A stretch of DNA of 64,000 nucleotides from Clostridia bacterium (GTDB lineage Bacteria > Bacillota > Clostridia > Acetivibrionales > DSM-2933). Below the pieces are notes generated by a model. That model was not told where the DNA came from, did no database searches, and worked only from the letters and a program-made list of their open reading frames with translations. A program made the translations under genes and the position numbers. Position 1 is the first letter of the stretch. Every line of letters begins with the position of its first letter. The stretch is taken from contig JAOAEJ010000090.1 of NCBI GenBank assembly GCA_026416815.1, positions 62,486 through 126,485 on the forward strand, read 5' to 3'. Below, one piece after another: positions 19,459 through 37,979 of this stretch.

Positions 19459-19560
19459 TGTAGATAGTTTAGGTTGAAACTGATTTTATTCAGCCAAGCA
19501 AATCGAACTTATCATAGCTCATTGCCTAGCTGGAAATCACTAAGTTCAACCTAAACTATC
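19459..19560 (+). repeat. Nested-hairpin interspersed element, family 2, copy F1
   Basis: Outer 18-bp inverted repeat TAGATAGTTTAGGTTGAA/TTCAACCTAAACTATCTA encloses a conserved core ...TCGAACTTATCATAGCTCATTGCCTAGCTGGAAATCACTAAG shared with 29621.., 37846.. and (reverse complement) 33621... Confidence 0.75.
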
Positions 19561-19725
19561 TATATTACAGCGTATATAGTAGTTATAGACAAAAATCTTA
19601 TCCTGCCACATTACATAATAGTTTCTTCCTTTTTATCGAAATTTATTTATAATGCAAAAAGACCCTGTAGCCAGCCTTGAAAGGCCGATTACAAAGTCTT
19701 TTAGATAACCACTGTTAGTTTTTAT

Positions 19726-21111
19726 TTAGAAAAGAATATCCACTATAAAATATGACACTATAGCAATTGCTGCGGCTATTGCCGTAATAACCTTATCCTT
19801 AATCGTAAGACTTACTCGGCTTCCGCTACGCTTAATTATTCCAAAGTTTTCAACAGTTGCCGCCGCAGCCCATCCCAATACAGGATTTAAAGCTATGCCT
19901 ACTACTATACATATAGCAGCTACTATCGAGTCCTCAGCATTTTTTACTGCATTTAGCCCAACTTCCATAAGCGGGATATATACCCCAAAAATCAACACCA
20001 GCCATATTAGCGGCGGGAAAACTGCAATGTCCAGAGGCGCTCCCAGTATACCAAATAGTATTCCAACCACTCCAAGCAGTAGAGCGCTCCCGCCTATAGG
20101 TCTTCTCACCGTTGCTAAGGGGATCATAAAGCTTCTCCATACAGCCGAAGTTTGTGCCCCTCCTAAAAACGCTCCAATAAGGTTCCTTAGAGATACTGCA
20201 ATAAAAGTTGAATTCATATCAAATACAGCTTTCTCTGAGCCTTCACCATAGTTTGCTTCCTGTATGGTTCTTATAGCCAAAGCATCGGTAGGCCACATAA
20301 CTATCGCCAGCAGCGCAAAAGGCAGAGCTCTAATAAAGTTTTCCACACTTATACCCCAGCCTATGCCCCATACCTTATTCCACCAAAAATCCGGATTAAT
20401 TGTAGGAAACGAGATAGACGTACCTATAGATGGATAAATATTAAACACTGCTGGTATTATTAGGGCTGCAAGTGCACATGAAGGTATCATCAGCCACCTT
20501 ACACCAAGCCTGCTTAATATTACAAAAAGTATGAGCCCGACTATGATCAAAACTTCAAACAGCATATAAGTATTATTTTGCACAGCCCACCCCTTTAAGC
20601 TTTGCAGCGAGCTGCTTATGCCCATAAACCCGAAAAGTAATATAATACCGCCTTTTGTCCCAGGGCCGTTTATCTTTACTATTGCCTCTATGTACCCCGA
20701 TATGGATATCAAAAATCCAATTACTCCTATAAGTATACCTAGAGCCAAAGGATGCACACCTGCTGCAGCCATGACCGGAATAAGCGAGACAAGTGGAGCA
20801 AGCGTTCCCGGAGGAGCCATATAAGGATTTAATAATGCACAAAATATTATTGTTATAATACTTCCTACTATGATTTCCAACCTGACATTTTCAATAACGA
20901 ACGCAGGATTATCTATGCCCAGTGCTTTAGCCCAAGCGACAGCAAATGCCGCAGCCATAGCAACCTTACCGATAGCACCGGATAACGCAGGAATAATGTC
21001 CTCAAATCGCAGGTTATAATTTATCAAAGGAAAATTTACAGCCCATTTCTTAGGGCTATATGCTATCAAATCCTCTTGCAACGTCTCTTGTCGTAATGTA
21101 TCCTTCCTCAA
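19726..21111 (-). CDS. NCS2-family permease (AzgA/PbuG-like purine/xanthine-uracil permease), divergent
   Basis: 461-aa polytopic protein. Its C-terminal half follows the PbuG pattern (GAFLGGAQTSA...GGSALLLGVVG...APL). Confidence 0.45.
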   Translation of the reverse strand: MRKDTLRQETLQEDLIAYSPKKWAVNFPLINYNLRFEDIIPALSGAIGKVAMAAAFAVAWAKALGIDNPAFVIENVRLEIIVGSIITIIFCALLNPYMAPPGTLAPLVSLIPVMAAAGVHPLALGILIGVIGFLISISGYIEAIVKINGPGTKGGIILLFGFMGISSSLQSLKGWAVQNNTYMLFEVLIIVGLILFVILSRLGVRWLMIPSCALAALIIPAVFNIYPSIGTSISFPTINPDFWWNKVWGIGWGISVENFIRALPFALLAIVMWPTDALAIRTIQEANYGEGSEKAVFDMNSTFIAVSLRNLIGAFLGGAQTSAVWRSFMIPLATVRRPIGGSALLLGVVGILFGILGAPLDIAVFPPLIWLVLIFGVYIPLMEVGLNAVKNAEDSIVAAICIVVGIALNPVLGWAAAATVENFGIIKRSGSRVSLTIKDKVITAIAAAIAIVSYFIVDILF

Positions 21112-21221
21112 TCAAGCACATCCCTAATTATATTATGATATGATAAAGATTTTACACCTTGAGGAAAGTAATTACCTTACTCTGTGTAAAATCCTTATCG
21201 CTTTTGTATAGATTAAAATTA

Positions 21222-23102
21222 TTACAGCTTCATCGGAATAAGATTAATATAATCATCCAAAGTACCATCGTTCAGGCAGCATTCAATAATTTGTCTGCCT
21301 AGCGGGTTGAGTTCAGGGGACATAAATTGTGCAAGCTCTTCCTTAAAGAAGTTGGTTAGAATCTTCGCACCTTCATCATACGCCTCATTTCCAACCTCAG
21401 GCTGGTGATTGGTCTGCAAGTAACCCTTAGGTAAGAATGTACCGTCCACCTTTAATGTTTCAAGCGCATAACCTAAAAGTGTACATCTTGATTCCGTTAC
21501 CTGCTCCGGCCTAAACCTTGCACTGCCACGTCTAGCAAGATATTCTCTTGCAATCCACTCCGACATAAACCCTACCTTATGAGCACCCACGTGCTGGTTA
21601 GGTATCAGTATATACCTTGTACTCGGAGTATTAATAATCTGTTCAAGCAGAAGGTTCGCCTGATCTACCATCCTACCTGTAGCAAAAGGCCAGTAGGATC
21701 CTACACCTTCACTGCTCATACCTTCGTCACCTATAATGCTAGGGTTATCATATCCCCTTGGAGCTACCAGTCTCCACAGCCAAGCAAGTGCTGGAGGCAG
21801 AATGTGGAATACACCCATAATACCATAGCTAGGATTAGCTTTTGTACATGGAGGAGTCCTTACCCCAAAGCTTCTTACATCAACTGCTACAGGCTCGTTA
21901 ATTATATCCGGCACAAACCTTCTCGGCATTATAACCCTTGGGTTTGGGCATGGTTTACCCGGTGCATCCATAGTATGTTCCCATATGAGGCATGTAGATC
22001 CGGGAACACCCTGAAGATTCAGGAATATCAATGGCTCTTTAGGATGTACGCAAAGTGTCTCATAATGAGGATCGGTACCATATTTAGTGATATGATTAAT
22101 TCTTAAGAACCATCCCTCTTCTGCATCCTTTACCACCAGTCTAGTGTGCCCATTCTGCAGCGAAGGATGGCATATAGCCATATCGTCAGTTACCGGCAGA
22201 AGCTCACAGGTTTCCTTCAACTCAATATAACTCTTTTCACCTGTAACAACATTTTTTCCAAGTACAATTCTTCCGTCAAGTTCCTTATGTATCTGCTCCA
22301 GCATTTCGCTCTTACCGCCACCGCTGGCTCCCTCATGCATTATAGTTATAACATTTTCATAAGGAGTAATTACCTTTACGGTAGAAGCATGTACAGTAAT
22401 CCAGCCTTCAAGCTCGCCTATATTTAGCAGAACACCGTAAATTCCCTTCTTTGCACTTGGTCCGGGATACAAGTTGTATGAAAAGAGCTCATGCATATCC
22501 TCAAGCCTGTTGTGTACAACAATCTGCTTGCCATCAAAATGTGTGTGTCTGAAAGGTGGTGCAAGATAAATTACTGCCTTTGGTTTAAAACCTTGAGGAA
22601 TTTGGCTCTTTGGTATGAAGCCCTGCAAATCCGCGAGTCCTGCAGCAAAGAAGCCTGCATTAGACGGTGCTACAAGTAAAGCTTGATAACCAAGCTCATC
22701 TCCGCCCGCCATAAACGGCATAACAATCAGATCTTGCTCAGCGATCCAGTCAAACGTTACCTTACGAAGAGGCATAAAGTCCTCTCCATAAACATCCTTA
22801 TATCTAGGTTTATCGGTTTCCCCACTGTCGGCAACCACCATACAGTCTGGGTCCCTTCTTCTCATATATACATCGCTATAATTTACAACAGCACCATTCT
22901 TGCATTTTGCTACTGTAGCTTCAACAACTCTTCCGGTACCCGGTACCTCATATGCTACCTCATAAAGCCCGTCTTCTGCGTCCCCCATAGCGAGTGTAAG
23001 CAATTCATCTCTGCTTTCGGGAATTATAAGACCAGCCTTGGACTTGAGTAAATCTCTTAATTCATCCGGGAGTATAAACTTTTCTAATAATAAATCTTCC
23101 AC
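21222..23102 (-). CDS. HPr-kinase-like P-loop protein (DUF4914-like), 626 aa
   Basis: P-loop HEGASGGGKSE matches the HprK GxSGxGKSE signature. No other recognisable domain. Confidence 0.4.
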   Translation of the reverse strand: MEDLLLEKFILPDELRDLLKSKAGLIIPESRDELLTLAMGDAEDGLYEVAYEVPGTGRVVEATVAKCKNGAVVNYSDVYMRRRDPDCMVVADSGETDKPRYKDVYGEDFMPLRKVTFDWIAEQDLIVMPFMAGGDELGYQALLVAPSNAGFFAAGLADLQGFIPKSQIPQGFKPKAVIYLAPPFRHTHFDGKQIVVHNRLEDMHELFSYNLYPGPSAKKGIYGVLLNIGELEGWITVHASTVKVITPYENVITIMHEGASGGGKSEMLEQIHKELDGRIVLGKNVVTGEKSYIELKETCELLPVTDDMAICHPSLQNGHTRLVVKDAEEGWFLRINHITKYGTDPHYETLCVHPKEPLIFLNLQGVPGSTCLIWEHTMDAPGKPCPNPRVIMPRRFVPDIINEPVAVDVRSFGVRTPPCTKANPSYGIMGVFHILPPALAWLWRLVAPRGYDNPSIIGDEGMSSEGVGSYWPFATGRMVDQANLLLEQIINTPSTRYILIPNQHVGAHKVGFMSEWIAREYLARRGSARFRPEQVTESRCTLLGYALETLKVDGTFLPKGYLQTNHQPEVGNEAYDEGAKILTNFFKEELAQFMSPELNPLGRQIIECCLNDGTLDDYINLIPMKL

Positions 23103-23650
23103 TTAAAAAATCCCCCTCTTATAATTTCTTTTCGTTTTTATTTAATTAAATTATTGATACTATACTTTATTTGTTCTGAAACAGTATTTAATCTGAGAGT
23201 TAAATAAGAAATATGGCTAACTACAAACATCTGATTAAGCTTTTAGAGTTTATGTTTTTTCTAATTCATAGTTAAATAAATCATCTATGTTTACTGTGTT
23301 ATATACAGTTTTTGGATTTACCACGCTTAGTCTCAGGCTGCCTCTTGGTGAGAGCTGATAAAATCCTATAAGTACATATAGATTTGTTAATGTAAAAATG
23401 AAATTAACCATTAACTAAATTGCATTATTTCGATTTATACTTTTGCAACCCAACATATTTTCTTAATATTAACATGTTTTTTGCAACTAATCAAGTGTAA
23501 TATTTCATTTTCACAAACTCATCTCATTTTTTTACATAAACATAACAATCCTAATAAATATATTTCTCCAGCCAGCTCTTATATATACCAAGTAAGCATT
23601 CCATATTTGCTTTAACTGGTGTTTAACATCCAGCGGTAAATACAAATAAT

Positions 23651-23712
23651 TAAAAAGACCTTTAACATAACTATCTATGTCTATAGAGTTATGTTAAAGG
23701 TCTTACTTTTTA
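23651..23712 (-). terminator. Bidirectional Rho-independent terminator downstream of dut
   Basis: 16-bp perfect stem GACCTTTAACATAACT/AGTTATGTTAAAGGTC flanked by an A-run and a T-run. Confidence 0.7.
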
Positions 23713-23776
23713 ACTTATAAGCGTATAGCCAAATAGTAAATTATGTGCGATATATGTATACACATACATAATTAAA

Positions 23777-24274
23777 TTATCGCACCCCTGTTGAACCGAA
23801 GCCTCCACCGCGGTCTTCGCCTATGTTTCGTACTGATTCTACTACTGTAAGCTGCATTTTTGGTACTACCTGTAGCACTATTTGAGCAATCCTGTCACCC
23901 TTGCTGATCTTGTATATACCCTTTTGGTTTCCGGTGCTTCCCACCGTCAATATCTCAGCTTCATCATAATCATAAGCCTCTGAAGTATTACTCATGATTA
24001 CTCCAAGCTCGTCCCTATAGCCACTGTCTATAGTCCCCGGTGAATTGGACAGCCTTAAAGGGGTCTTTAACGAAATACCGCTTCTAGGCCTTACCTGTAT
24101 CTCGTAGCCTTCAGGTATAGCTAGCTTCAGACCTGTAGGAACCACAACAGTTTCTCCCGGCCTTATTATTACATCCTCCGCAGCGCAAATATCCATACCT
24201 GCGTCTCCGGGCTTAGCATATGCAGGTAAGGTAGCACCATCCCTGCAAATTTCTATAAATACCTCAACAGACAT
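23777..24274 (-). CDS. dut: dUTP diphosphatase
   Basis: dUTPase motifs (AGMDI, RSG, GTIDSGYRDE, RGGGFGSTG). Confidence 0.85.
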   Translation of the reverse strand: MSVEVFIEICRDGATLPAYAKPGDAGMDICAAEDVIIRPGETVVVPTGLKLAIPEGYEIQVRPRSGISLKTPLRLSNSPGTIDSGYRDELGVIMSNTSEAYDYDEAEILTVGSTGNQKGIYKISKGDRIAQIVLQVVPKMQLTVVESVRNIGEDRGGGFGSTGVR

Positions 24275-24450
24275 CTTACTCCTCCTTATTAAAAATTGTA
24301 TACACCACTTCCCTAATCTTGTACGTCAGAACTTTGCCAACTTAAAGAAATGTTGTAAAAACGCATTTTTAAGATTTATTTTGAAAATTTAAACATCATT
24401 CGACCATTTCCCAGGAAATAATACATAGTCATACAGGAAATTTGTCTAAT

Positions 24451-26955
24451 TTACACTCCCCTGAAGAAATGACCTTTTGTAAATCCCCGTGCCTTCACTT
24501 TCTCTGCCAATTCATTGTATTTACTTACTGCCCCGGTACCACTGGAGGCAATATCCCTGTGCATTACTATCAACCCTTTTATTTCTTCATAGCTTTCGTC
24601 GCTTATATTCAAGCGAACAGTCGCTATCCCGCCCTTCTTTAGTTTCCCTAAAATATCCGGCACAAATATAACATTGGAGTTTAAAATGGTACTTCTGCAA
24701 TCTATCCTGTCGCACAAAACGGGAAACTCCATACCCAGCCTGTCCTTCAGCCTGTATACTCCCTTACTGCAGGCCTCTTTGCATTTGGTCCCTGTTTTGA
24801 AGTCACCGGCAATACTGCCAACGGGGCAATACTCACTGTTCATAACAGTAATCCTGCCATAGGCAACAACCTCTGTTTCCAACGTATCAAAGCCCTCCAG
24901 GTTAGTAATTTGGCTAAGCGTAAGCTCCGGAGACAGGGTTATTCCGCTAAGCCCTAAGCTCCGTAAAGTCTCTGCCGAGAAGCTATTGAACACATTTAAA
25001 GAGTAATCTCCCACAACTTTTAATTCGGGAAATTTAGAGGTGTAATCAATAGACCCAAGGTTACCTACAAGTACCCCATCTATACCGGCCTCAACAAATT
25101 CCCCGAGCCTTGACTCAATCAACCGATCATAATTCCCCCGGGTAATTGGCGGAAGCCAGATAAAAACCTCACAGCCATTCTTCCGGCATTTTTCAACAAC
25201 TTCTTTAATATCTTTACCAACTAACTCTCCAAAGGGTAAATATAGCCTGTCCAATCCAAGACTTCCGTAATCTATTTCTTCGCTCCATGTGTAAAAGAAT
25301 GCCGAAAGATTCAACTCCTTCGTTTCCCTTCGACCATTTCCCAGGAAATACAACATCTTTTTCTCTTCGTCTGCTTTTTCTTTCGATATTTTTCTTACCC
25401 GTTGATTAGCTCTTTTGGACTCCATTCGTTCCAGAACTTCACGCCTTATATTATTTAGCTCACTGATTGGCAAAGCCAAATCTTCGTCCAGTATGATATC
25501 AATTTCTTTAAATTCAAAGGGTGTTGCTCCGGTTTTCTTTAGTTGTTCCATTATCCGCTCTTCGGTTAGCGGTCTATTCAGTGCTTTTTCAGGTACAGTG
25601 CTGCCTGTAACGGTGACTTCATTTCCGTCATTATCCCATACAGTGAAAACCACAGGTTCCAGGCTTTTTATTTCTATTTTACCTCTTAAAATGGCCCTCC
25701 TGAAAAACTTTCCCCCAAAGGTTTCCCGAGCAGCAGCATTTAGCCTTTTATCCGAGGTCTTATAAACTTTATTCCCCTTGGATATACGACCGCTTACACT
25801 CCCCACTGCCGCTATCTGTCCCGCATTTACCAAAGATTCATTTTTACCGTTCACTTTAATTTCACTTACAACATTTCCTGGGCTCTCGCCCTCTCCATTC
25901 CAGATTTCAATTCCATCCCCTATGGACAACTCGTCTTGAAGCTTGATTTGAACCATCCTTGAAGCCTTGTCATAGGAAACAACTTCGCCTAAATAAATGC
26001 CCCAGTTTTTAGGCTTTTCATAACACATCATGTCCCTCCCCTGCTTACCCTTGAGATAGCCGGCAGAGAAGCCTCCCCTGTTAAAAATCTGTGACAGTTC
26101 CTTTATGTCCTTTTTATCTGCGCAAACTTCCCCTGAAGCACCTTTATTATTTTCACCAAGCGCCATATCCAAATATTTTCTATATATCCTTACAACAGTA
26201 GCAACGTATTCCGGGCTTTTCATCCTTCCCTCAATCTTGAAGGACTTTACTCCGGCACTGACCAATTCTCTCAGCTCATTAATCGAACATAAGTCTTTTG
26301 GGCTCATAATATATCCCTTGTCGGATTTCGTTCTTTCACCCGCAAGCTCATACTGGAGTCTGCAAGGCTGTGCACACTTTCCCCGGTTTCCGCTCCTTCC
26401 TCCTATGATACTGCTCATAAGACACTGCCCTGAGTAGCTTATACACAAAGCCCCATGTATAAACACCTCAATCTCCATCGGAGTACCCTTCGCTATATGC
26501 CCTATTTCTTTTATTGAAAGTTCCCTCGCAAGCACCACCCTGCCAAATCCAAGGCGTTCCAACTGCTTTACCCCCTCAAGGTTATAGGTTGTCATCTGGG
26601 TGCTTGCATGAATGGAAATGTCTGGAAGGAACTTATGAAGCATAGAAGCCAGCCCTAAATCCTGCACGATTATACCGTCAACGCCCATCAAATAAGCTTC
26701 TTCGGCAAAATCAACAGCATGTCTCATCTCCTCATCCGACACCAGTGTATTCATCGCAAGATATATGTTTGTCCCTCTTATATGAGCATAATCAAGGGCC
26801 TCCTTTATCTGCTCGCTGTCAAAATTTCCTGCAAACTGTCTTGCGTTAAAAAGCTTCCCTCCAAGATAAACCGCATTTGCCCCATTTTCTACAGCAGCAA
26901 CAAATGCTTCCCAGTCACCGGCAGGAGCCAGAAGTTCTATTTTATCTTTAGTCAT
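24451..26955 (-). CDS. U32-family peptidase (collagenase-like), long form
   Basis: N-terminal ELLAPAGDWEAFVAAVENGANAVYLGG and the E..Y.MG..RS..G.C U32 signature. 834 aa. Confidence 0.8.
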   Translation of the reverse strand: MTKDKIELLAPAGDWEAFVAAVENGANAVYLGGKLFNARQFAGNFDSEQIKEALDYAHIRGTNIYLAMNTLVSDEEMRHAVDFAEEAYLMGVDGIIVQDLGLASMLHKFLPDISIHASTQMTTYNLEGVKQLERLGFGRVVLARELSIKEIGHIAKGTPMEIEVFIHGALCISYSGQCLMSSIIGGRSGNRGKCAQPCRLQYELAGERTKSDKGYIMSPKDLCSINELRELVSAGVKSFKIEGRMKSPEYVATVVRIYRKYLDMALGENNKGASGEVCADKKDIKELSQIFNRGGFSAGYLKGKQGRDMMCYEKPKNWGIYLGEVVSYDKASRMVQIKLQDELSIGDGIEIWNGEGESPGNVVSEIKVNGKNESLVNAGQIAAVGSVSGRISKGNKVYKTSDKRLNAAARETFGGKFFRRAILRGKIEIKSLEPVVFTVWDNDGNEVTVTGSTVPEKALNRPLTEERIMEQLKKTGATPFEFKEIDIILDEDLALPISELNNIRREVLERMESKRANQRVRKISKEKADEEKKMLYFLGNGRRETKELNLSAFFYTWSEEIDYGSLGLDRLYLPFGELVGKDIKEVVEKCRKNGCEVFIWLPPITRGNYDRLIESRLGEFVEAGIDGVLVGNLGSIDYTSKFPELKVVGDYSLNVFNSFSAETLRSLGLSGITLSPELTLSQITNLEGFDTLETEVVAYGRITVMNSEYCPVGSIAGDFKTGTKCKEACSKGVYRLKDRLGMEFPVLCDRIDCRSTILNSNVIFVPDILGKLKKGGIATVRLNISDESYEEIKGLIVMHRDIASSGTGAVSKYNELAEKVKARGFTKGHFFRGV

Positions 26956-26957
26956 TT

Positions 26958-27851: not shown

Positions 27852-27933
27852 ATTCTAATATTATTTTATACAGCCATTTTCTACTTCTCATTATATATTA
27901 CCCTCAAAAAGCTTCACAATAATGATTGCATTA

Positions 27934-29577: not shown

Positions 29578-29620
29578 TTAAATCACCCACCTCTAAAGAC
29601 AACGAAGTCCAAACCAGGGA

Positions 29621-29690
29621 TTCCCAGCTAGGAAAATCGCATTTACCACAGCACATTGTCTAACTGAAAATCACTTAGTTTACATCAAAC
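29621..29690 (+). repeat. Family 2 element, degenerate copy F2 (core only)
   Basis: TCCCAGCTAGGAAAATCGCATTTACCACAGCACATTGTCTAACTGAAAATCACTTAGTTTAC aligns with the F1 and F3 cores but has mismatches in the inner stem and lacks a long outer inverted repeat. Confidence 0.55.
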
Positions 29691-29823
29691 TACCTTTAAT
29701 ACTATTGTATTTTCTGTGCCCTAATGGTGTTACACTTTCGGTGGGTTAGCAAAGGTGACTTTGCCATTTTGTTTGCATATGTTCGTCTGTGAGAGCAAGG
29801 AATCCTGAAACGCATATAAGTTC

Positions 29824-29846
29824 AAAAAAATGAGCCTTTCGGCTCA
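29824..29846 (-). terminator. Rho-independent terminator after the 29862..30230 gene
   Basis: On the minus strand, UGAGCC-GAAA-GGCUCA is followed by U7. Confidence 0.65.
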
Positions 29847-29861
29847 CTGTTGTAAATCAGT

Positions 29862-30230
29862 TTATATCTTTAGTGTTAGCTTTAATACCGTTTTATCGTC
29901 TTTTTCTATTATATAGGCATTCACTCCGGTGTCCTTGGCTATTTTATCCCTATCACTTACCTTATATCCACCATCTGCTTCCGTTCCTATAGATATCATA
30001 CCGTTTTCATCCCTCTGAGCGGTAGGATTTTCCCAGTCAAATTCTTCAAATGTGTTGCCGCAGCATGACGGCAGCTTGACGTATACTTCACAGCTCCTAG
30101 CGCTACTTAATTCATTAATCAACTCTTCCAATCCCATCCCCATGAATTCACGCTCCCTTTGCCTTGCATTTTGGTAGTCTAAATCTTTACGACAAAAATT
30201 CGGCTTATATATCGTCCATCTCCCTATCAA
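29862..30230 (-). CDS. Hypothetical protein (122 aa)
   Basis: ORF only. Overlaps the upstream small ORF by 26 nt in a different frame. Confidence 0.3.
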   Translation of the reverse strand: MIGRWTIYKPNFCRKDLDYQNARQREREFMGMGLEELINELSSARSCEVYVKLPSCCGNTFEEFDWENPTAQRDENGMISIGTEADGGYKVSDRDKIAKDTGVNAYIIEKDDKTVLKLTLKI

Positions 30231-30426
30231 TCTGGGGCCTGCCTACCATCTCGTCATAATACCGCCCGATTATAGAGTATTGTTCCTGATACCTCTTATT
30301 GCTTTCGTCGCTCAAGAAATTTGTTATATCTCCTACACTGCTAAACTCATACGGGTAATCGGTAGCTTCCATCATCTCATTTATTTCCTTAAATATCTTC
30401 TTTTCATCCATAATACTACCTCCCAA
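30205..30426 (-). CDS. Hypothetical acidic small protein (73 aa)
   Basis: GGGAGG RBS 7 nt upstream of ATG 30426. A perfect palindromic operator lies immediately upstream. Confidence 0.35.
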   Translation of the reverse strand: MGGSIMDEKKIFKEINEMMEATDYPYEFSSVGDITNFLSDESNKRYQEQYSIIGRYYDEMVGRPQIDREMDDI

Positions 30427-30436
30427 AGATAGTTTA

Positions 30437-30463
30437 CTGTAAACTATCTTTAATATTTATTGT
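30437..30463. promoter_or_regulatory. Perfect 13-bp-arm palindrome AAAGATAGTTTAC-TG-TAAACTATCTTT abutting the RBS of the 73-aa ORF; candidate operator
   Basis: Seen directly. The half-site AGATAG/CTATCT matches the termini of family 2 elements and the AAGATAATATCTT palindrome at 49004. Confidence 0.5.
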
Positions 30464-30492
30464 AATATTATTAGGTGGTTTAACTGTTTTTA

Positions 30493-30553
30493 TGCGATAT
30501 AAAGGAAGGAGCCTGCACAAAGCAAGCCCCTTCCTTTATATCGCATAAGCACC
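30493..30553. other. Long GC-clamped hairpin (GCGATATAAAGGAAGG...CCTTCCTTTATATCGC) without a U-tract, between the zapA-like gene and the small ORFs
   Basis: 16-bp perfect stem with no flanking T/A run on either strand. Function unclear; possibly an RNA stability element. Confidence 0.4.
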
Positions 30554-30566
30554 ACTTATATTCTAC

Positions 30567-30992
30567 TTAGAATTCCCCTTCCCTTTTAACAGCCTTGTTA
30601 AGGGAATTTCTCACTTCATTAAGCTCTGCCTCTTTTTTTACCAGCTCAATCTGTATACCCGCAGCCTTATTATTCAATGCAGAATTTTCTTCCATAAGAC
30701 GCTTATTCTCTGCCCTCAGTCTCTCAAGCTCATCAACCGAACGCTTCAAATCTCTTTTTAAATTCATTTCATTCTCACGGGTTTTGAAACAATCATCGGC
30801 AACATTTATAGCAGTAAGGACAGCTGCCATAGATGTACTCAACTTACTGTTAACCCTCATTATTTCATTCATTTTTTTATCTATATAATAGCCTATTTTT
30901 TGTAAATACTCCTCCGACTCTGTACCAACCAGAGTGTAATCAACACCGGCAATTCGTATCTCTACTTTGTTCTTTGAGGCCACAAGAACCAA
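30567..30992 (-). CDS. zapA: Cell-division protein ZapA-like
   Basis: N-terminal VEIRIAGVDYTLVG...EEYLQKIGYYIDKKMNEI followed by a coiled-coil C-terminus. Confidence 0.55.
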   Translation of the reverse strand: MVLVASKNKVEIRIAGVDYTLVGTESEEYLQKIGYYIDKKMNEIMRVNSKLSTSMAAVLTAINVADDCFKTRENEMNLKRDLKRSVDELERLRAENKRLMEENSALNNKAAGIQIELVKKEAELNEVRNSLNKAVKREGEF

Positions 30993-31169
30993 CTCCTTTA
31001 CAAAAACAAAAACGCTTCAGCCTTAGCTTGAAATAAAGGCTGAATTAATTCTAAAACCAATAGTAAATCATGTTCCTATATTATACAATATTACACTATA
31101 ATTCGGCAAACAAATAATGCAATTTATAAATGTCGGTTTTAATTTTTGTTAATTATCCTCGAAATATGC

Positions 31170-31207
31170 AAAAAAGGAACCGCTGGATACAGTTCCTTTT
31201 TGTTTTC
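31170..31207 (-). terminator. Bidirectional terminator downstream of the flotillin gene
   Basis: AAAAAAGGAAC...GTTCCTTTTTGTTTT. Confidence 0.65.
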
Positions 31208-31271
31208 TATAAATTCAATTAAGTTTATCCCCTAAATCTTACGCAACATTATAGAGATTTTCCTCTCACTT

Positions 31272-32738
31272 TTAGTATATATCATTATTCTTTATATCCT
31301 TTACATCAATTGTTTTATCTACTGCTTTATCTATCTTAGCATAATTTCTTATAATATCTGTCAGGTCAATACCTGTAAGGCTTTTTACCGTTTCAGGCAG
31401 TTGTGCCATTACGTTTGTAACATCCTTTGTAATCTTTGAAGCGCCGGAATCTCCAATCATAACAATCTTTTCAGTCTTAGCCAAAGGCTGTGCCACAGCT
31501 GAAGCGATTTCAGGAAGCTTTTCAATAATCATCTGTGCCATTGCAGCGTCATTAAACATCTTATATGCCTCTGCCTTCTTAATCATAGCTGCCGCTTCCG
31601 CTTCACCCTTTGCCTTGATGATTTCCGCTTCGGCAAGACCTGCAGCCTTTATAGCCTCAGCTTTAGCTAGACCCTCAGCTTTTATGGCGTAGGAGTAACC
31701 TTCTGCTTCCTTAGACCTCTTGACACGTTCCGCTTCCGCCTGTACCTCAGTTTTAAACCTTTCAGCTTCAGCAGGTTTCTTTACAGTAGCTTCGAGTTCT
31801 CTTTCCTTTCTTAATGCTTCCTGCTCTTGCAGTTCAATCTCTTTTTGCTTCTTGACGATTTCAACCTTCATTGCTTCCGCTTGAACTTCCTGCTCAATAA
31901 CATATTTCTTCTTATCATAGGATAGGTCAGATTCGGCTTTTCTTTCATTGATAGACGCCGTATAATCGGCTACCTTCATTTCCTTATCCCTATTAGCCTC
32001 GGCAACCTTGGTTTCTGCGAGGAATTTTGCTGTCTGTCCGGCCTGCATAGCTTCTGCGCTCTTAATGTCTGCGTCCCTTTTGGCTTCTGCCTGACCTATA
32101 ACCGCATCCCTCTGTACTCTTGCAATCTGTGCCTTACCCAAGCTTTCAAGGTATCCGTTCTTATCAGCGATTTCTCTGATGGTAAAGGATATAATCCTAA
32201 GACCCATGTTTGCGAGATCGGCAGCCGCCAATTCCTGTACCTTCTGAGCAAAAACATCCCTGTTCTGGTTTATCTCTTCAACAGTAAGGTTACCAACAAT
32301 AGAACGCAGGTGACCTTCAAGTGTTTGTGTAGCAATCCTTCTTATTTCTTCCTCTTTAAGGCTTAAAAACTGTTCTGCAGCAGTAGCTATCGCTTCCTGG
32401 CTGGAATCTATCTTTACTTGAGCTATACCGTCAACAGTAACCTGTACACCCTGAGCTGTATAGGCACTGGAGTTTACATCCAAAGGCATAATTCTCAACG
32501 ATATTGTCTTTGCCACTTCAAAAATCGGCCATACAAAGGTTGCTCCACCCCGTACAATTCTAAATCCTACAGTCTGACCGTTAGGAAGCTTTTTCTTACG
32601 ACCGGAAACTATAAGAGCTTCGTCCGGCCCAACCTTAACATACCTGCTTACAAATACCGATACCATGATAAACAGTACAAGCACCAGAAGCCCTGCAACC
32701 AAAATAGTAATACCACCATTAAAACTCATTAACTTCAA
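31272..32738 (-). CDS. Flotillin-like SPFH/band-7 protein (FloT/YuaG-like)
   Basis: N-terminal TM segment, SPFH domain, and a long EA-rich coiled coil. Confidence 0.8.
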   Translation of the reverse strand: MKLMSFNGGITILVAGLLVLVLFIMVSVFVSRYVKVGPDEALIVSGRKKKLPNGQTVGFRIVRGGATFVWPIFEVAKTISLRIMPLDVNSSAYTAQGVQVTVDGIAQVKIDSSQEAIATAAEQFLSLKEEEIRRIATQTLEGHLRSIVGNLTVEEINQNRDVFAQKVQELAAADLANMGLRIISFTIREIADKNGYLESLGKAQIARVQRDAVIGQAEAKRDADIKSAEAMQAGQTAKFLAETKVAEANRDKEMKVADYTASINERKAESDLSYDKKKYVIEQEVQAEAMKVEIVKKQKEIELQEQEALRKERELEATVKKPAEAERFKTEVQAEAERVKRSKEAEGYSYAIKAEGLAKAEAIKAAGLAEAEIIKAKGEAEAAAMIKKAEAYKMFNDAAMAQMIIEKLPEIASAVAQPLAKTEKIVMIGDSGASKITKDVTNVMAQLPETVKSLTGIDLTDIIRNYAKIDKAVDKTIDVKDIKNNDIY

Positions 32739-32743
32739 CCTCC

Positions 32744-33352
32744 CTAGATATTTTTATTTCTTTCACTTTTTCTAGATTCACCTTTTTCACTTTCCAACAG
32801 CTCCAAATCATCTATAGTCAATTTTCTTGCTATGTAGGCGATGCCGCCCGATACCTCCTTTATCTTTGCAATCTCACCCTTTGCTATTTTCTCCTTATAT
32901 ATAGACTTTGCCGGCATACTGTGCCTCACACCGCCAATAACATACACTATCTCACCCATACCACCCTCCGGTACGGGCGTTGCTACTTCCGCATCCATTT
33001 CTATAAGATCGCTTTGAGAGAAGCTTGAGTTGGATTGAGAATTATACATTAGCTTAACTACCCCAAAAAACATCCCCGCTCCAACTATACCTGAAAAAGT
33101 AAGTGCAAGTAGTGAGCTTATAAGCTCACCCATACCGAAACCAAGTTTGCCTATTGTCCCTGCAGCTCCAAAAGCTGTTATCGCGCTGGCAATAACTAAA
33201 GGGTTGAATAGTGAAGGCAAATCAGCGGAATCACCCCCTCCATGACCGCCATGGTCACCTCCACCGTGGTCAAAGCCGTGCCCACTAAGTAAGGCTGATC
33301 CTATGGAATATAAAAGTCCGAATGCAAGACATCCGATATATACGTACAGCAA
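32744..33352 (-). CDS. NfeD-like membrane protein (YuaF-like flotillin partner)
   Basis: TM N-terminus plus a C-terminal OB-fold-like region. TTG start with GGAGGTG 6 nt upstream. Operonic with the flotillin gene. Confidence 0.65.
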   Translation of the reverse strand: MLYVYIGCLAFGLLYSIGSALLSGHGFDHGGGDHGGHGGGDSADLPSLFNPLVIASAITAFGAAGTIGKLGFGMGELISSLLALTFSGIVGAGMFFGVVKLMYNSQSNSSFSQSDLIEMDAEVATPVPEGGMGEIVYVIGGVRHSMPAKSIYKEKIAKGEIAKIKEVSGGIAYIARKLTIDDLELLESEKGESRKSERNKNI

Positions 33353-33373
33353 GGCTACACCTCCTAGTATAAT

Positions 33374-33495
33374 ACTACTTTGTTATTTACCTTAGTTATG
33401 GCAAATTCAAAGCTTAAGTTGCCGATGAAGAAATAATCAACAACGTTTTTGGGTTGTTATTTCTTCATCAGAAATTCCAAAATAACAAAGTAGTA
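33374..33495. repeat. Family 3 palindromic element (E1): outer 16-bp arms TACTACTTTGTTATTT/AAATAACAAAGTAGTA enclosing a 17-bp-stem inner hairpin
   Basis: Partial copies are at 39531..39554 (5' arm) and 46621..46665 (3' part). It starts 22 nt upstream of the nfeD start codon. Confidence 0.6.
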
Positions 33496-33620
33496 ATAAA
33501 TTAGTTCAACTACACTTCTCTATATATTATTAACTAAATATCCGCAACTGAACTGATTTAGCTAGTTTTATAATATATTCCAGTTTGTTTCCTCACCATT
33601 GCCTACTCCAATTCAAGTTT

Positions 33621-33729
33621 ACTATAGATAACCAAATTAAACTTAGTGATACCGAGCTAGGCAACAAGCTGTGATAAGTGCTACTTGCCTAGCCAGATAA
33701 AATCAATTTTAAATTTGGTTATCTATATA
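33621..33729 (-). repeat. Family 2 element, copy F4 (reverse orientation)
   Basis: Outer inverted repeat CTATAGATAACCAAATTAAA/TTTAAATTTGGTTATCTATA. The core reverse-complement TTTATCTGGCTAGGCAAGTAGCACTTATCACAGCTTGTTGCCTAGCTCGGTATCACTAAG matches the F3 core. Confidence 0.7.
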
Positions 33730-34040
33730 CTGCAGTGAGTTGGGTATATAATAAAACTGCAAATTCAGATATACGCTCTCCTCCTATTATATCAAAGCAT
33801 CCTACCTCATTGTATATATCTATTTCTTGCATTTAAAATTCGCACATCATCGTGCTATACTCTATATATAATGTATTGCAACACTACATACAATGTTACA
33901 CTCTTTTATAACTCTCCGCAACTGCCAATTAATGTATTAGTAACGAACCTATGGCAGTAGGCCGACATTTATTACACTAATCTCTCTGTATCTAACCCTA
34001 TCTACTATTTTCTTAGCATACCTTACTTATGTAGCATATA

Positions 34041-34080
34041 AAATAAAAAAGTCCCTGTGTTTAATTTATAACAGGGACTT
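34041..34080 (-). terminator. Rho-independent terminator after the 34091..34669 gene
   Basis: On the minus strand, AGUCCCUGU...ACAGGGACU is followed by a U-run. Confidence 0.65.
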
Positions 34081-34090
34081 GCCTTTATAT

Positions 34091-34669
34091 CTATTTCTTT
34101 ATATATTCTTCTAAGATACCGTTAACCAGATCCTTCATTGCTATAGTCTCAGCCATAGTAGTAAGTGCTATCATAAAAGCAGTAGCTACATTTTTCTCAT
34201 TTTCCTTAATGCCGTCTTCGTCCAGCAGTTTTTTTATGCTATCAAACAGATAAGGCAATGACTCTTTCCATCTATCGAGAGCTTCCTTTCTCATTGTCAG
34301 ATAATTCTTATACACATCGGTGGTCTTTATTATATCGTCTTCAAATATATCAGGGTTATTACGTATAGGCTCCAGGACAGTTCTTATTTCGTCCAGGGAA
34401 TAAATTGATTTCAGGTTGTCTATTAAAGTTAAAAGTACCAGATGATTTTTTGTGTAATACCTTTTATCTACTGGGGGAGGAAGTACACCCACCCTGATAT
34501 AGTTTTGAATCATTGTTTTTGTAAAGCTTCTGCCTTGCCTTTCAAAGAACTTTACCACTTGAGATATAGTAAGCTCGTCACTCAGTGTAATAATTTTCAC
34601 CTGATCGTCTTTATCTATTATGTTGTTCGCAAGCTTCAAAAGCGAATCTTTATCAATATTTGTGTCCAT
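34091..34669 (-). CDS. DUF1836-like protein
   Basis: 192 aa. Family assignment is from memory of the pattern, at low confidence. Confidence 0.35.
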   Translation of the reverse strand: MDTNIDKDSLLKLANNIIDKDDQVKIITLSDELTISQVVKFFERQGRSFTKTMIQNYIRVGVLPPPVDKRYYTKNHLVLLTLIDNLKSIYSLDEIRTVLEPIRNNPDIFEDDIIKTTDVYKNYLTMRKEALDRWKESLPYLFDSIKKLLDEDGIKENEKNVATAFMIALTTMAETIAMKDLVNGILEEYIKK

Positions 34670-34769
34670 AAACTTTCACCTCTTTACTTCGTATATTATA
34701 CATCTATAGAATGAAGTGTATAACTCTATACTATTTTAATAATATACTTTATGTACTTCCATGTCAATA

Positions 34770-34805
34770 AAAAAGGCAGGCAATACACTTTGACCTGCAT
34801 TCATG
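34770..34805 (-). terminator. Terminator after the DUF2007 gene
   Basis: On the minus strand, GCAGG...CCUGCC is followed by U6. Confidence 0.5.
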
Positions 34806-34836
34806 CCTACCCCACGATTATCTTTAATATTTATTT

Positions 34837-35181
34837 TCACTTTTCATCTTCTACACTCTCAACTAAATCTTCCTCATCCACCGGAGTACTGATTAATTGA
34901 ACAGCTTCCTCGTATCTGTCTTTCGGCACTAGTACATCTATACCCGCCAAAGGTGTCCCCAGTACAATCTGTAAAAAGTTATCTACGCCTCTTACTTTTC
35001 TTATTACAGGTATATCAGCTATTTCCAAAAGGCTTTTCAACATTCCGAATTCCATATCGTCACCAACTGTAGTCAGTATATCCCAATTTTCTTCTACACG
35101 TACTCCTGCCTCGCTCTGTACAGGACTGCACTTAGGACATTCACCCTCATAATCCACCTTGCAACCAGGACAAAAAGTCAT
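34837..35181 (-). CDS. Zinc-ribbon + DUF2007 (PII-fold) putative signal-transducing protein
   Basis: N-terminal CxxC...CxxC. A C-terminal ~70 aa fits the DUF2007 pattern (L..A.....L...GI...). Located at the position GlnK normally occupies, 3' of amtB. Confidence 0.45.
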   Translation of the reverse strand: MTFCPGCKVDYEGECPKCSPVQSEAGVRVEENWDILTTVGDDMEFGMLKSLLEIADIPVIRKVRGVDNFLQIVLGTPLAGIDVLVPKDRYEEAVQLISTPVDEEDLVESVEDEK

Positions 35182-35255
35182 ACAAAAACACCTCTTAATT
35201 GTTTAATATCTATAATATTACCATATTTATATGCAGCTAGACAGAATTATGCACA

Positions 35256-35290
35256 TAAAAATAAGCCTCACGGAAAGGCTTATTTTTATG
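35256..35290 (-). terminator. Bidirectional terminator/attenuator between amtB and the DUF2007 gene
   Basis: AAAAATAAGCCT-cacggaa-AGGCTTATTTTTAT. Confidence 0.6.
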
Positions 35291-35315
35291 CTTATATATA
35301 CTTTTTATGATTTGT

Positions 35316-36665
35316 TTACACTACATCCCCAACTTTGACCTTTTTTATACCGCTTGTTGCTGCTTTTTCATTTGAAAGCTTTATACCATCATCCTCAAGC
35401 ACAATACTATCATCAATTGCAGACTGAGCATATGCTCTCATACCGTGTTCACTGATGTCGAGCCCTTCTATCTCTTCCTCGGTACTTACTCTTATACCAA
35501 CAGTTGCTTTCATAATCTTAAATACTATAAATGTTGTTGCAAAAGCCCATATAGAAACGGCCAGGAGACCTGCAGCCTGGATACCTAATAGTTTAAATCC
35601 GCCACCAAAGAAAAGTCCTTTAGCACCGTTTACCGAACCAAAAAGGCCTACTGCCAACGTTCCGAAGGAACCGCATACTCCGTGTACCGCAATTGCTCCT
35701 ACAGGGTCATCAGCACGTACCTTATCTATCATTTCTACAGCTATTACAACCAATACACCACCAATGGCACCTATAACAACAGCACTTGCCATATTTACAT
35801 ATCCACAGCCTGCAGTAATTGATACAAGACCTGCAAGCGCACCGTTTATTGTCATACTTGCATCTACTTTACCATACCTCAGCAGTGTAAATATTGCAGT
35901 CGCAAATCCTCCAGCTGCTGCGGCAAGGTTTGTTGTCACAACTACATGAGCTATATTGCCGTCAAGACCGTTCAGTGCACTACCCGGATTGAAGCCGAAC
36001 CACCCGAACCACAGTATGAATGCTCCCAGAGCAGCCAGCGGTATGTTGTGCGCCGGTATAACATTTGCAGTACCATCTTTTTTATATTTACCTATCCTTG
36101 GTCCTAAAACTATAACTGCCGCAAGAGAAGCCCATCCGCCTACAGCGTGAACAGCAGCCGAACCGGCAAAATCCAGCATACCCATTTTTGCAAATATACC
36201 TTCAGGATTCCATACAACGTGTCCGGCAACAGGGTAAATTATTGCTGTCGCCAAAAAGCTGAATACCATATAAGGTACAAACTTCATTCTCTCTGCAACT
36301 GCACCCGAAACGATGGTAGCAACTGCAACAGCAAATGCCGCCTGGAACATCCAGTAAACCTCAACCGGGAGTCCGAATTGAGCCAGCACAGGCAGGTTGC
36401 TCATAGAGCCCTGGGCAAAAAATCCTGTAGTACCGAATATACCGAACTTATCAGCTCCATACATTACAGCAAATCCGAGTACCCAATAACCTAACAAACC
36501 GGCACAGCAATCAATAAAAACCTTCATAATTATATTCAATGAGTTCTTAGCCCTTACAAAGCCAGCCTCAAGCATAGCAAATCCTGCTTCCATAAAAAAA
36601 ACCAACGCCGCTGCGAGAAGTATCCATACGGTATTTATACCATGTGCGAGATAATCCATAGTCAT
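35316..36665 (-). CDS. amtB: Ammonium transporter (Amt family)
   Basis: Typical Amt N-terminus WILLAAALVFFMEAGFAMLEAGFVRAKN. 11 TM. Has a ~50-aa C-terminal extension. Confidence 0.9.
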   Translation of the reverse strand: MTMDYLAHGINTVWILLAAALVFFMEAGFAMLEAGFVRAKNSLNIIMKVFIDCCAGLLGYWVLGFAVMYGADKFGIFGTTGFFAQGSMSNLPVLAQFGLPVEVYWMFQAAFAVAVATIVSGAVAERMKFVPYMVFSFLATAIIYPVAGHVVWNPEGIFAKMGMLDFAGSAAVHAVGGWASLAAVIVLGPRIGKYKKDGTANVIPAHNIPLAALGAFILWFGWFGFNPGSALNGLDGNIAHVVVTTNLAAAAGGFATAIFTLLRYGKVDASMTINGALAGLVSITAGCGYVNMASAVVIGAIGGVLVVIAVEMIDKVRADDPVGAIAVHGVCGSFGTLAVGLFGSVNGAKGLFFGGGFKLLGIQAAGLLAVSIWAFATTFIVFKIMKATVGIRVSTEEEIEGLDISEHGMRAYAQSAIDDSIVLEDDGIKLSNEKAATSGIKKVKVGDVV

Positions 36666-36847
36666 AATTCATATCACCTTTCTTAAAACTTTTTTAATTT
36701 TTGAATGAAGTATACTTCGCATATTTTTGTATGCGAAAAGAAGTTAAAGGTACTTATTTTCTCTCAACGCCATTGTTTCAAGAAGAAATGATTTTTGAAC
36801 AGAAATGGAAGGGTATAGACAGCCGTTGTGTATATCTCCCATGAACA

Positions 36848-36886
36848 TAAAAAGCCCTGCATACAGTAAAAAACTGCATACAGGGC
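36848..36886 (-). terminator. Terminator after the hemerythrin gene
   Basis: On the minus strand, GCCCUGUAUGCAG...CUGUAUGCAGGGC is followed by UUUUUAUG. Confidence 0.6.
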
Positions 36887-37116
36887 ATCGTTACCCTAGG
36901 TGGTGTGCATCAGTGCAATAACAACATCGTAGGCAAAAAGCGTCCACGGTTTTTGCCACGATACAATTATATAATATAAACATAAAAAATGCAATCTCTA
37001 TAAATGAAAATTGCATTTTTTTATATTTTTACTATAATATTATTATTTTTTTGGTTTTTTTGAATAATAAAAAACAAGATTTTATCAATTAATTTAATAC
37101 AAAATAGGCTATATAC

Positions 37117-37554
37117 CTATTGCTTAGCCTTTAAAAATGCTCCGAGGGCTTTATCAGAGCTTCCTATATGCTTGATTAGCCAATCAACTACTGTACGGTT
37201 TATGTTTGAAACGAAATAAACTGTAGGACCTTCTTCCTCAAATCTATTTTTTAACTCTGAGAAATCCTTTATAAATTGCTCATGCTGCTGCTTATGAGCA
37301 TCGTACTGCGGATAATCACAATTTTGCATTATTTTTTCTTCATCATTAAAGTGTGTAACTACGTAATCCTCTAAAAACTTTACTGTATTACCCACCTCTT
37401 CCTTACCTTTTCTCTCTGTACATGCAGTAAAAAGCTTGTCAACCGCTTCAAACAGTTGCTTATGCTGATTATCAATCTCCCCTACCCCTATTGCCAAACT
37501 ATCCTTCCATTGTACTCCCATTGATAATTCCTCCTTTGAAAAGTAGGTTGCCAA
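37117..37554 (-). CDS. Hemerythrin-like (HHE cation-binding) protein
   Basis: H..H..E spacing pattern, WLIKHI C-terminal motif. 145 aa. Confidence 0.65.
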   Translation of the reverse strand: MATYFSKEELSMGVQWKDSLAIGVGEIDNQHKQLFEAVDKLFTACTERKGKEEVGNTVKFLEDYVVTHFNDEEKIMQNCDYPQYDAHKQQHEQFIKDFSELKNRFEEEGPTVYFVSNINRTVVDWLIKHIGSSDKALGAFLKAKQ

Positions 37555-37845
37555 CTTGATAAAAATAGCAAGCTTACAACCTGTAAGAATATATTTCGTC
37601 TATGAACTAAATTGAATTTAACCTCCACGCTAATCAGTCACAGGCTAGCTTTACTCCTAGAACTACTTATGAAACAAAAAATATTTAAAATTATTCTACA
37701 TTCTACATAAAACAACAATATTTCAATTATAACAATTTGCAAAGGCTTGTTCAAGCTTTTTAAAGGTTTCGGTTTTTCAGTTATTTCGCAAATCAGTACT
37801 ACATTTTGACCAATTGTCTGTGTATAAAGTTTTGCTCCATAAAAA

Positions 37846-37979
37846 TTCAAGCCCGGATTTAAAGATAAGTCACTGCAAAAGTGTTTTTATCCAGTTAGGC
37901 AAGTCGCACTTACCACAGCTCATTGCCTAACTGGATAACACTAAGTTCACACTGACTTATCTATAACCCGGGCTTGAAT
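37846..37979 (+). repeat. Family 2 element, copy F3 (best-preserved)
   Basis: Outer ~30-bp inverted repeat ATTCAAGCCCGGATTTAAAGATAAGTCACTG/CACTGACTTATCTATAACCCGGGCTTGAAT. Middle stem AGTGTT/AACACT. Inner perfect 12-bp stem CCAGTTAGGCAA/TTGCCTAACTGG with a 20-nt loop. Confidence 0.8.

Follow-up and report, generated by a model that had tools for sequence, protein, structure and literature searches.

We analyzed a 64-kb stretch of DNA (hereafter the window; positions 62,486 to 126,485 of contig JAOAEJ010000090.1, assembly GCA_026416815.1) from a member of the Clostridia. The genes in the window are ordinary chromosomal genes, with metG, rsmA, tatD, zapA, amtB and transporter genes among them, and nearly all of them are on the minus strand. 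The GC content is 37-44% and the GC skew is -0.1 to -0.3 throughout. Between these genes there is a family of short palindromic elements. An earlier note on this DNA had described four copies with a shared core, and had interpreted them as a structured RNA or a cruciform recombination site instead of a decaying MITE (miniature inverted-repeat transposable element). The family is real, yet it is larger and more varied than was noted, since profile searches and arm-pair scans found six further members or fragments in the window, several of which lack the core. We suggest that the elements are probably a lineage-specific MITE family of a kind that is already known, resembling RUP, Correia, ERIC and bcr1. 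All of our conclusions rest on this one window, in which there are four full-length copies of the commonest type (type I), three of them intact.

A carrier with different interiors

There are about 10 members or fragments of the family per 64 kb, and these are found in both orientations (5-6 plus to 4 minus; Table 1). They range in size from 25 to 147 nt, are all intergenic, lying between called open reading frames (ORFs), and contain no ORF of 20 aa or more. From comparison of the members, the defining unit is the carrier, i.e., the ends, rather than the core. The carrier consists of short conserved termini, self-complementary arms of 10-12 nt and a conserved CTAAG bulge, and it is bordered by TA. 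With a colon for each border, its formula is TA:(T/A)AGATAR-arm...CTAAG-arm'-YTATCT(A/T):TA. The termini (T/A/C)AGATAR...YTATCT(A/T) are present in c1-c5, c8 and c9, and are degenerate in c10. What the carrier contains is variable. Four copies (101-102 nt) enclose a core hairpin, two have an interior that is rearranged and includes a different hairpin, two hold a GC-rich three-hairpin module, and one has no content at all, leaving a 25-nt palindrome. The core of the earlier note is the commonest of at least three carrier interiors. Neither a free-standing core nor a free-standing GC-rich module was found outside carriers in the window.

The four type I copies, whose limits were set by the conserved termini, are where the earlier note had placed them. 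This is borne out by a check of the sequence and by a 23-nt core probe (up to 3 mismatches), which matches exactly c1-c4 in the window and nothing in 100 shuffles. A scan for AGATA...TATCT pairs with complementary extension recovered c1, c3, c4, c5 and c8 in the window (at least 11/14), while shuffles gave 0-4 pairs and 333 kb of other loci gave none at 12/14 or better.

Table 1. Positions of the family members, of the terminator split by c3 and of a riboswitch in the window
Feature	Kind	Length (nt)	Position	Strand	Remarks
c1	type I	102	19461-19562	+	carrier arms, stem 2 and core hairpin; flanks TG and TA
c2	type I	101	29596-29696	+	flanks TA/TA; adjoins the ribosome-binding site (RBS) of the beta-helix gene
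c3	type I	102	37862-37963	+	flanks TA/TA (37860-61, 37964-65); inside a terminator hairpin loop
c4	type I	101	33625-33725	-	opposite orientation; flanks TA/TA
c5	type II	96	46606-46701	+	flanks TG/TA; divergent promoter region
c6	right-end fragment		13843-13881	-	no core, no left arm; in the 5' leader of the GDT1 gene
c7	probable decayed second type II composite		33418-33540 (approximate)	+	hairpin X at 33453-33488, with AGTAGT...ACTAC
c8	bare carrier	25	30426-30450	.	perfect palindrome AAGATAGTTTAC-T-GTAAACTATCTT; arms only, no interior
c9	type III	135	8985-9119	-	flanks TA/TA; GC-rich three-hairpin module replaces the interior
c10	type III	~147	53178-53324	-	GC-rich module in degenerate c1/c5-type arms; ends 15 nt from the RBS of an ABC ATPase gene
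Host terminator	intrinsic terminator of gene 37985-39415, split by c3		37846-37978	-	stems TTCAAGCCCGG (37846-37856) and CCGGGCTTGAA (37968-37978), then TTTTTAT
Moco riboswitch	RF01055, 77 bits		5432-5550	-	upstream of a molybdate-type ABC transporter (PBP_like_2 gene 4554-5519), beside moeA/MoCF genes

Borders and insertion sites

A TA dinucleotide is found at 11 of the 16 borders, that is at seven of eight right borders and four of eight left borders, where the remaining four are TG, TG, CA and CA. The background of TA in these intergenic regions is 12%, which gives a P of about 2e-7 for 11/16. The similarity between copies stops sharply at the termini, and local alignments of flank to flank score 5-13, which is background. 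In the earlier note, target-site duplications were named as the sign of an ordinary MITE. The TA borders may be such a sign, but because TA is itself palindromic it could also be an extension of the terminal inverted repeat (TIR). Longer target duplications or shared flanks were considered and rejected, as the TGCAGT to the left of both c4 and c5 is at background level. Copying of the arms from the flanking target was also rejected, since there is no resemblance.

One copy, c3, is inserted in the loop of an intrinsic terminator of the host. When c3 and one TA are removed in silico, the minus strand reads ATTCAAGCCCGGGTTAAATCCGGGCTTGAAT followed by TTTTTAT, a 14-bp hairpin with a predicted energy of -22.2 kcal/mol. 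The restored terminator is 11 nt past the stop codon of gene 37985-39415 and is like the other intrinsic terminators of this genome. A plausible terminator loop is obtained each time, with removal of one, two or no TA. The 30-bp outer repeat that had been assigned to this copy is thus a composite, in which the outer 11 bp are the host terminator stem and only the remainder is formed by the arms of the element. A second terminator is involved at c9, which starts 5 nt after the scanned terminator stem of a histidine-kinase gene (9157-9127), within the T-tail. Elsewhere, c1 has the 3' end of the DUF3360 gene on one side and the Ca-ATPase start on the other, and c8 directly adjoins the RBS (GGGAGG) of the downstream minus-strand gene. 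Overall, the positions relative to genes are mixed and include 5' leaders, 3' ends, a divergent promoter region and a terminator loop.

Near c8 there is also a long near-perfect palindrome, TATGCGATATAAAGGAAGG...CCTTCCTTTATATCGCATA, at 30486-30548 between the zapA-like gene and c8. It has a T-run on the plus-strand side only.

Pairing in the arms and the question of an RNA

Among the four type I copies, sequence identity is 64-93% in the termini, 32-47% in the variable arms, 62-81% in the interior and 65-85% in the loop. The maintenance of pairing while the sequence diverges is as the earlier note had described it, as the arms of c1, c3 and c4 are still complementary. The claim of an outer repeat that differs from copy to copy without exception goes too far. 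An alignment of the arms is possible and sorts them into a few types, which are defined by the sequence that comes after AGATA. The G-TTT type forms both arms of c1 and c8 and the right arms of c2, c5 and c6, and the right arm of c10 is a degenerate version of it. Both arms of c3 are of the A-GTC type, both arms of c4 are of the A-CC type, and the left arms of c2 and c9 are of the A-CG type. What separates the c1/c6 arm type from that of c4 is largely a set of paired transitions together with an indel.

The outer repeat is also not self-complementary in every case. The arms of c1 (TAGATAGTTTAGGTTGAA / TTCAACCTAAACTATCTA) pair perfectly (18/18), those of c4 are TAGATAACCAAATT(T)AAA / TTTAATTTGGTTATCTA, and c1, c3 and c4 all form nested whole-length hairpins on either strand. 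Their energies are -36 to -75 kcal/mol with z-scores of -6 to -12, and none of 200 shuffles is equally stable. In c2, the arms are mixed, with a c4-like left arm (AGACAACGAAG) and a c1-like right arm (AAACTACCT). The plus strand of this copy has nine A.C mismatches, each of which reads as G.U on the minus strand, the transcribed one. It folds no better than shuffles on the plus strand (z -1.4), and on the minus strand its z-score is -1.95.

RNAalifold gives four helices for the four sequences: the outer stem, stem 2, a core stem of 15 bp and a loop closure of 2 bp. Changes on both sides are found in 9 of the 36 pairs of this alignment, seven of them in the outer stem. The compensatory flip that had been reported in the second stem, A-T to T-A between c1 and c3, is confirmed. 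Column shuffles give 4.8 +/- 1.7 such pairs and only 9 of 500 shuffles reach nine, and the signal is lost when the partners are slid by 1-3 columns. The compensatory changes in the arms are real, but with four related sequences their statistics are modest. Covariation of this kind is equally expected of a DNA palindrome. Divergence that preserves pairing is already documented in mobile repeats, i.e., the REPINs (PMC3116915) and bcr1 (PMC3184786).

The mismatches that remain are not distributed evenly between the strands. In c1, c2 and c4, type I wobble-type (G.T) mismatches number 14 on the minus strand of the window and 3 on the plus strand. The inverted copy, c4, keeps the same bias, with three G.U and no A.C on the window minus strand. 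This strand is both the G-rich strand and the transcribed strand of the neighboring genes. It always gives the better fold, but so do its shuffles, and the z-scores are equal on both strands. Because of this, the wobble asymmetry is an effect of the genome strand in situ, with no sign of a sense strand that belongs to the element. Choosing an RNA strand from the folding energy was rejected for the same reason, as the shuffles share the advantage of the minus strand. The asymmetry could be caused by a C-to-T mutation bias, or by tolerance of G.U pairs in read-through transcripts.

A dedicated RNA gene is disfavored, because Rfam offers no match, the elements lack a promoter or terminator of their own, and the wobbles track the genome strand. 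In the Rfam scan of the window at gathering thresholds, no element was matched and the only hit was the Moco riboswitch elsewhere (Table 1). E-value scans of c1, c3 and c9 gave chance-level matches only, and no promoter or terminator belonging to the elements was found.

A less direct role in RNA is, in our view, unlikely. Here, copies of whatever origin would have been exapted as cis-acting hairpins and retained for a role at the mRNA level, with selection on the RNA keeping the stems paired. Such hairpins could act as a 5' stabilizer next to the RBS, as a terminator extension or as a site for RNase III or RNase J, as in Correia/NEMIS and ERIC, for which effects at the RNA level are documented (PMC2229807). 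The reading is compatible with a MITE origin. The wobbles do fall 14:3 on the transcribed minus strand whichever way an element points, and in c2, 29 of the 33 pairs scored (those without gaps) are still Watson-Crick or G.U when read on the mRNA strand. However, mutation bias alone predicts this asymmetry on a G-rich minus strand with a GC skew of -0.1 to -0.3, and the equal z-scores and the behavior of the shuffles speak against it as well. While c2 and c8 adjoin an RBS, and c3 and c9 are in or at terminators, these placements also have a neutral explanation, and the placement relative to genes is heterogeneous overall. The covariation, which exceeds that of the shuffles, speaks for selection on RNA, but truncated and cargo-swapped copies argue against a single conserved RNA function. 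Conservation of copies in related genomes could not be shown.

Derivative members and the origin of the interiors

The type II member c5 keeps the termini and the right half of type I (CTAACTGGAA-ACTACT-AAGT-arm), while the left core arm and the loop are deleted. In addition, it carries a different 36-nt hairpin, named hairpin X (46622-46657). Its stem 2 is AGTAGT/ACTACT, in which two pairs are changed on both sides compared with c3. Hairpin X (GTTGTTATTTT...AAAATAACAA), followed by AGTAGTA, is present a second time at 33453-33488 with 89% identity. This second copy is in c7, where an upstream segment (33423-33443) is complementary to its left arm as well. The fragment c6 consists of a short-looped stem 2 hairpin (GTGAATT-ATAA-AATTCAC), then CTGAG and the right arm TTTAACTTAAACTATCT.

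In the two type III members, c9 and c10, the family arms and a CTAAG/CTAAC bulge surround a GC-rich module, which is striking in an AT-rich genome. The arms of c9 are of c4 type (TAGATAACGAACC... / CTAAC-TTTGGGTATCTA) and, self-matches aside, match the c4 arms better than anything else in the window (18/22 and 14/15). Those of c10 (TAGTTAGTTAACTAT / ATAGTAAACTACCCA) are complementary at 12 of 15 positions. The module is about 95 nt long, is read on the minus strand (9016-9120 in c9 and 53221-53325 in c10), and is 76% identical between the two. Two of its hairpins are CAGGGGGC..GCCCTCCTG and TTGCGGC-TTT-GCCGCAA, and the third is not the same in the two copies yet stays paired.

Weak solo matches to the terminal arm of the family are present at 19700-19721 and 30864-30886 (TTTAGATAACCACTGTTAG, 15/22; TATAGATAAAAAAATG / TTTTTTTATCTATAT). 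These may be chance matches or old solo ends.

The exchange of interiors raises a different explanation, namely that the family is a nested system with two tiers. In such a system, the interiors (the 60-nt core with stem 2, hairpin X and the GC-rich module) would be smaller mobile units that target the centers of carrier palindromes. They would move by way of a folded single-stranded intermediate, either a single-stranded DNA hairpin with an HUH/Y1 enzyme as for REPIN/RAYT, or an RNA, and this would regenerate complementary arms. We give this explanation rather little credence. It is true that one interior occurs with several arm types (the core with G-TTT, A-GTC and A-CC, and the GC-rich module with A-CG and G-TTT) and that an empty carrier, c8, exists. 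However, c5, which keeps the right core arm CTAACTGGAA, is clearly a deletion and rearrangement derivative of type I. Interior diversity can therefore come from ordinary rearrangement and from recombination between copies. In favor of the two tiers, the arms are much less conserved than the interior they enclose, and both the A-T to T-A flips and the near-perfect arms of c1 and c4 would arise more easily by templated copying than by two independent hits. Against this, the junctions of carrier and interior show no visible target duplication and no conserved junction. No interior exists outside the carriers, no HUH/Y1 or reverse transcriptase gene is present in the window, and there are only 2-4 copies per type. 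The nested 21-27-nt SDR elements of Nostoc, reportedly described by Elhai et al. in 2008, would be one precedent for the two tiers. The REPINs are another (PMC3116915). If it were true, a two-tier system would explain how arms can be hypervariable from one copy to the next and still pair almost perfectly inside each copy. It would then be the Firmicute equivalent of what is seen with REPINs and with the SDRs of cyanobacteria.

Searches for relatives

In the nearest relatives, about 50 kb of DNA surrounding the Ca-ATPase genes (75% identical) was free of copies of the family. By protein identity, the next relatives are at 76% for the Ca-ATPase and 46% for the DUF7922 protein. The homologues of the host gene whose terminator is split by c3 are at most 46% identical over the full length. 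We also scanned large collections with degenerate core patterns. There were four matches in 185,579 GTDB species genomes, 0 and 20 in two scans of JGI metagenomes, and 11 and 2 in viral contigs with two patterns. These matches were rejected as copies, because inspection and nhmmer showed that the pattern alone matches and the partner arm is absent. Searches with blastn against plasmids and phages gave no match. The family itself thus appears to be new, as no sequence relative was found in the genome, metagenome, viral, plasmid and phage collections searched. Its absence from the DNA searched in the nearest relatives and from these collections fits a young, lineage-restricted selfish element.

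A cyanobacterial origin, with assignment to the Nezha or SDR families, was rejected in view of the 37-44% GC, the strong negative GC skew and the location of nearly all genes on one strand. The proteins of the window are also 100% identical to those of a Clostridia metagenome-assembled genome (locus tags N3B21_). REP/RAYT and IS200/IS605-type ends were rejected too, as their defining motifs are missing and a conserved left target of 4-5 nt is lacking.

Comparison with known repeat families

RUP of Streptococcus pneumoniae is 107 bp long, with contiguous TIRs of 9 bp, TA termini and targets, and a proposed mobilization in trans by IS630-Spn1 (PMC2229807). Our elements, as a probable Firmicute MITE, are similar in being non-coding and intergenic, with short TIRs, TA ends and a stem-loop that covers the whole element, in this case 101-102 nt. 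No sequence relation could be shown, however, and no partner insertion sequence (IS) is known here. In contrast to the highly similar copies of RUP, the present copies differ by 20-40% and have arms that are hypervariable yet complementary. Pneumococcal repeats do insert into each other (PMC10969869), but RUP is not described with alternative interiors.

The Correia/NEMIS elements of Neisseria are 100-155 bp long, have TIRs that start with TATAG..., duplicate TA, and occur as subtypes with internal deletions (PMC2229807; PMC3184786). They are located in gene leaders and at 3' ends, where their transcripts form long hairpins that are processed by RNase III (PMC2229807; PMC3184786). They differ from the present family in the phylum, in TIRs of 24-26 bp with a conserved sequence and in an interior that has no nested palindrome. 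Correia also carries an IHF site and promoters, neither of which is seen here.

ERIC (IRU) of the Enterobacteriaceae is about 127 bp long and forms an imperfect palindrome throughout, with a short conserved TIR (7 bp) and TA termini (PMC2229807). It is co-transcribed with neighboring genes and affects mRNA stability (PMC2229807). ERIC is conserved at orthologous sites across species, whereas the present family, which has no sequence relation to it, is seen in one metagenome-assembled genome. Variants of ERIC that have extra sequence at fixed internal sites are said to have been described by Sharp in 1997.

The bcr1 repeats (group A bcr) of the Bacillus cereus group are non-autonomous mobile elements that are transcribed and have compensatory changes, and some of their copies are destabilized (PMC3184786). 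Both bcr1 and the present family are Firmicute interspersed repeats with compensatory changes in the stems and with some copies that are less stable. Yet bcr1 is about 155 bp long, has 5-bp direct repeats instead of TA and a cruciform-like fold, and shows no sequence relation.

REPINs of Pseudomonas and other bacteria have conserved inverted ends and a middle that is constrained in length and in its capacity to form a hairpin, in which compensation is common (PMC3116915). They have been seen as mobile DNA rather than an RNA gene (PMC3116915). A hairpin with compensatory changes is common to REPINs and the present family. The building blocks of REPINs are GC-rich REP units of 20-40 bp that carry a GTAG/CGTC tag; REPINs depend on a RAYT (Y1) transposase and lack TA borders. 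In contrast, the present family has AT-rich AGATAA termini and no such tag, no Y1/RAYT gene is present in the window, and it is the ends and the center that are conserved while the region between them is variable. In Nostoc punctiforme, Elhai et al. are said to have found in 2008 that SDR hairpins are nested in other repeats or MITE-like hosts and that compensatory changes keep their fold. The SDRs are cyanobacterial, 21-27 nt long and without sequence relation to our elements, in which an independent mobility of the interiors would be hypothetical.

Discussion

We favor a MITE family because the hallmarks are present: short conserved TIRs, TA borders, unrelated flanks, both orientations and one split terminator. 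The anatomy, the sharp boundaries, the TA borders, the derivative forms, the restoration of the terminator and the covariation are all direct observations. Like RUP, Correia and ERIC, the elements are also small, AT-rich and non-coding, and have subtypes that differ by deletion or insertion. The derivatives are typical of a transposon family, with a bare palindrome (c8), a right-end fragment (c6), a rearranged type II and GC-rich cargo in two arm types. The earlier note had been correct about divergence that preserves pairing. Its conclusion, that the elements are a structured RNA or a cruciform site and not a MITE, is a false choice in view of these hallmarks.

The cruciform or hairpin site for a site-specific recombinase (attC-like, dif-like or recognized by a hairpin-binding enzyme), in which structure is conserved, is in our opinion very improbable. 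The outline of the elements, i.e., whole-length palindromes with conserved ends and stems that are variable but complementary, does resemble sites that are recognized by structure. Still, the AGATAR/YTATCT termini do not match the R''/R' cores of attC (RYYYAAC/GTTRRRY), and no integrase or recombinase gene is present in the 64 kb. The elements do not occur as one per gene cassette. Instead, they point either way and are found in 5' leaders, in terminator loops and in a divergent promoter region, and decayed and truncated copies are tolerated.

For the MITE family that we favor, we propose the following mechanism, in which mobility itself, the type of transposase and the cause of the arm co-variation are inferred. 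A transposase encoded elsewhere in the genome would recognize the termini in trans and insert the element at TA in AT-rich intergenic DNA. From the TA signature, the likeliest transposase would be of the IS630/Tc1-mariner type, as was proposed for the pneumococcal RUP. Being palindromic from end to end, the element would form a long hairpin in any read-through transcript. Such palindromy could allow the elements to sit in or beside terminators and 5' leaders without destroying them. In the propagating lineage, the complementarity of the arms would be maintained by fold-back selection, by hairpin-templated correction, or by both. After insertion, copies would decay mainly by transitions, which would be seen as G.U-type wobbles on the G-rich transcribed strand.

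Several points weigh against this interpretation. Neither a transposase nor a full-length IS with matching ends is present in the 64-kb window. A transposase that binds both ends leaves unexplained why the arms are hypervariable (32-47%) yet complementary compared with the interior (62-81%). Because TA and its reverse complement are the same, duplication of TA is inseparable from a 2-bp extension of the inverted repeat, and four left borders are TG or CA. The nearest relatives, which are 46-76% identical at the protein level, are too distant for a comparison of empty and occupied sites, and the terminator split by c3 is the one indirect sign of movement. Finally, the sample is small, with four full copies of which three are intact.

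If our interpretation is correct, this is a previously undescribed MITE family from an uncultured and poorly sampled lineage of Clostridia. It opens no new class of system. It is instructive for its exchangeable hairpin interiors in one carrier, its fast co-varying arms, and its insertions in or against terminators and RBSs. It would be a compact case for studying how palindromic repeats keep their arms complementary, by fold-back selection or by hairpin-templated correction, and it bears on the tolerance or recruitment of palindromic repeats within transcripts. For annotation, the family is a warning that covariation in interspersed hairpins is insufficient for calling a structured RNA gene.

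Other observations in the window

Two further sets of repeated sequences were found. The motif AGTCATATGATAAGTAGC..TAGTCATAAG..AGTCATA is present three times (52106-52145, 58155-58221 and 63561-63627), with 75-83% identity. Its copies are just upstream of the starts of minus-strand transporter operons, whose genes encode a solute-binding protein (50727-52103), an HlyD-like protein (56943-58136) and another solute-binding protein (62190-63530). One regulon probably shares the motif as its operator or promoter. In addition, there is a pair of intergenic repeats of about 106-170 nt (42041-42146 and 47841-47946) with 76% identity. In each of them, one hairpin resembles a terminator (GCAGGTGC..) and another is CCTTG..CAAGG, and the pair may represent a further repeat family.

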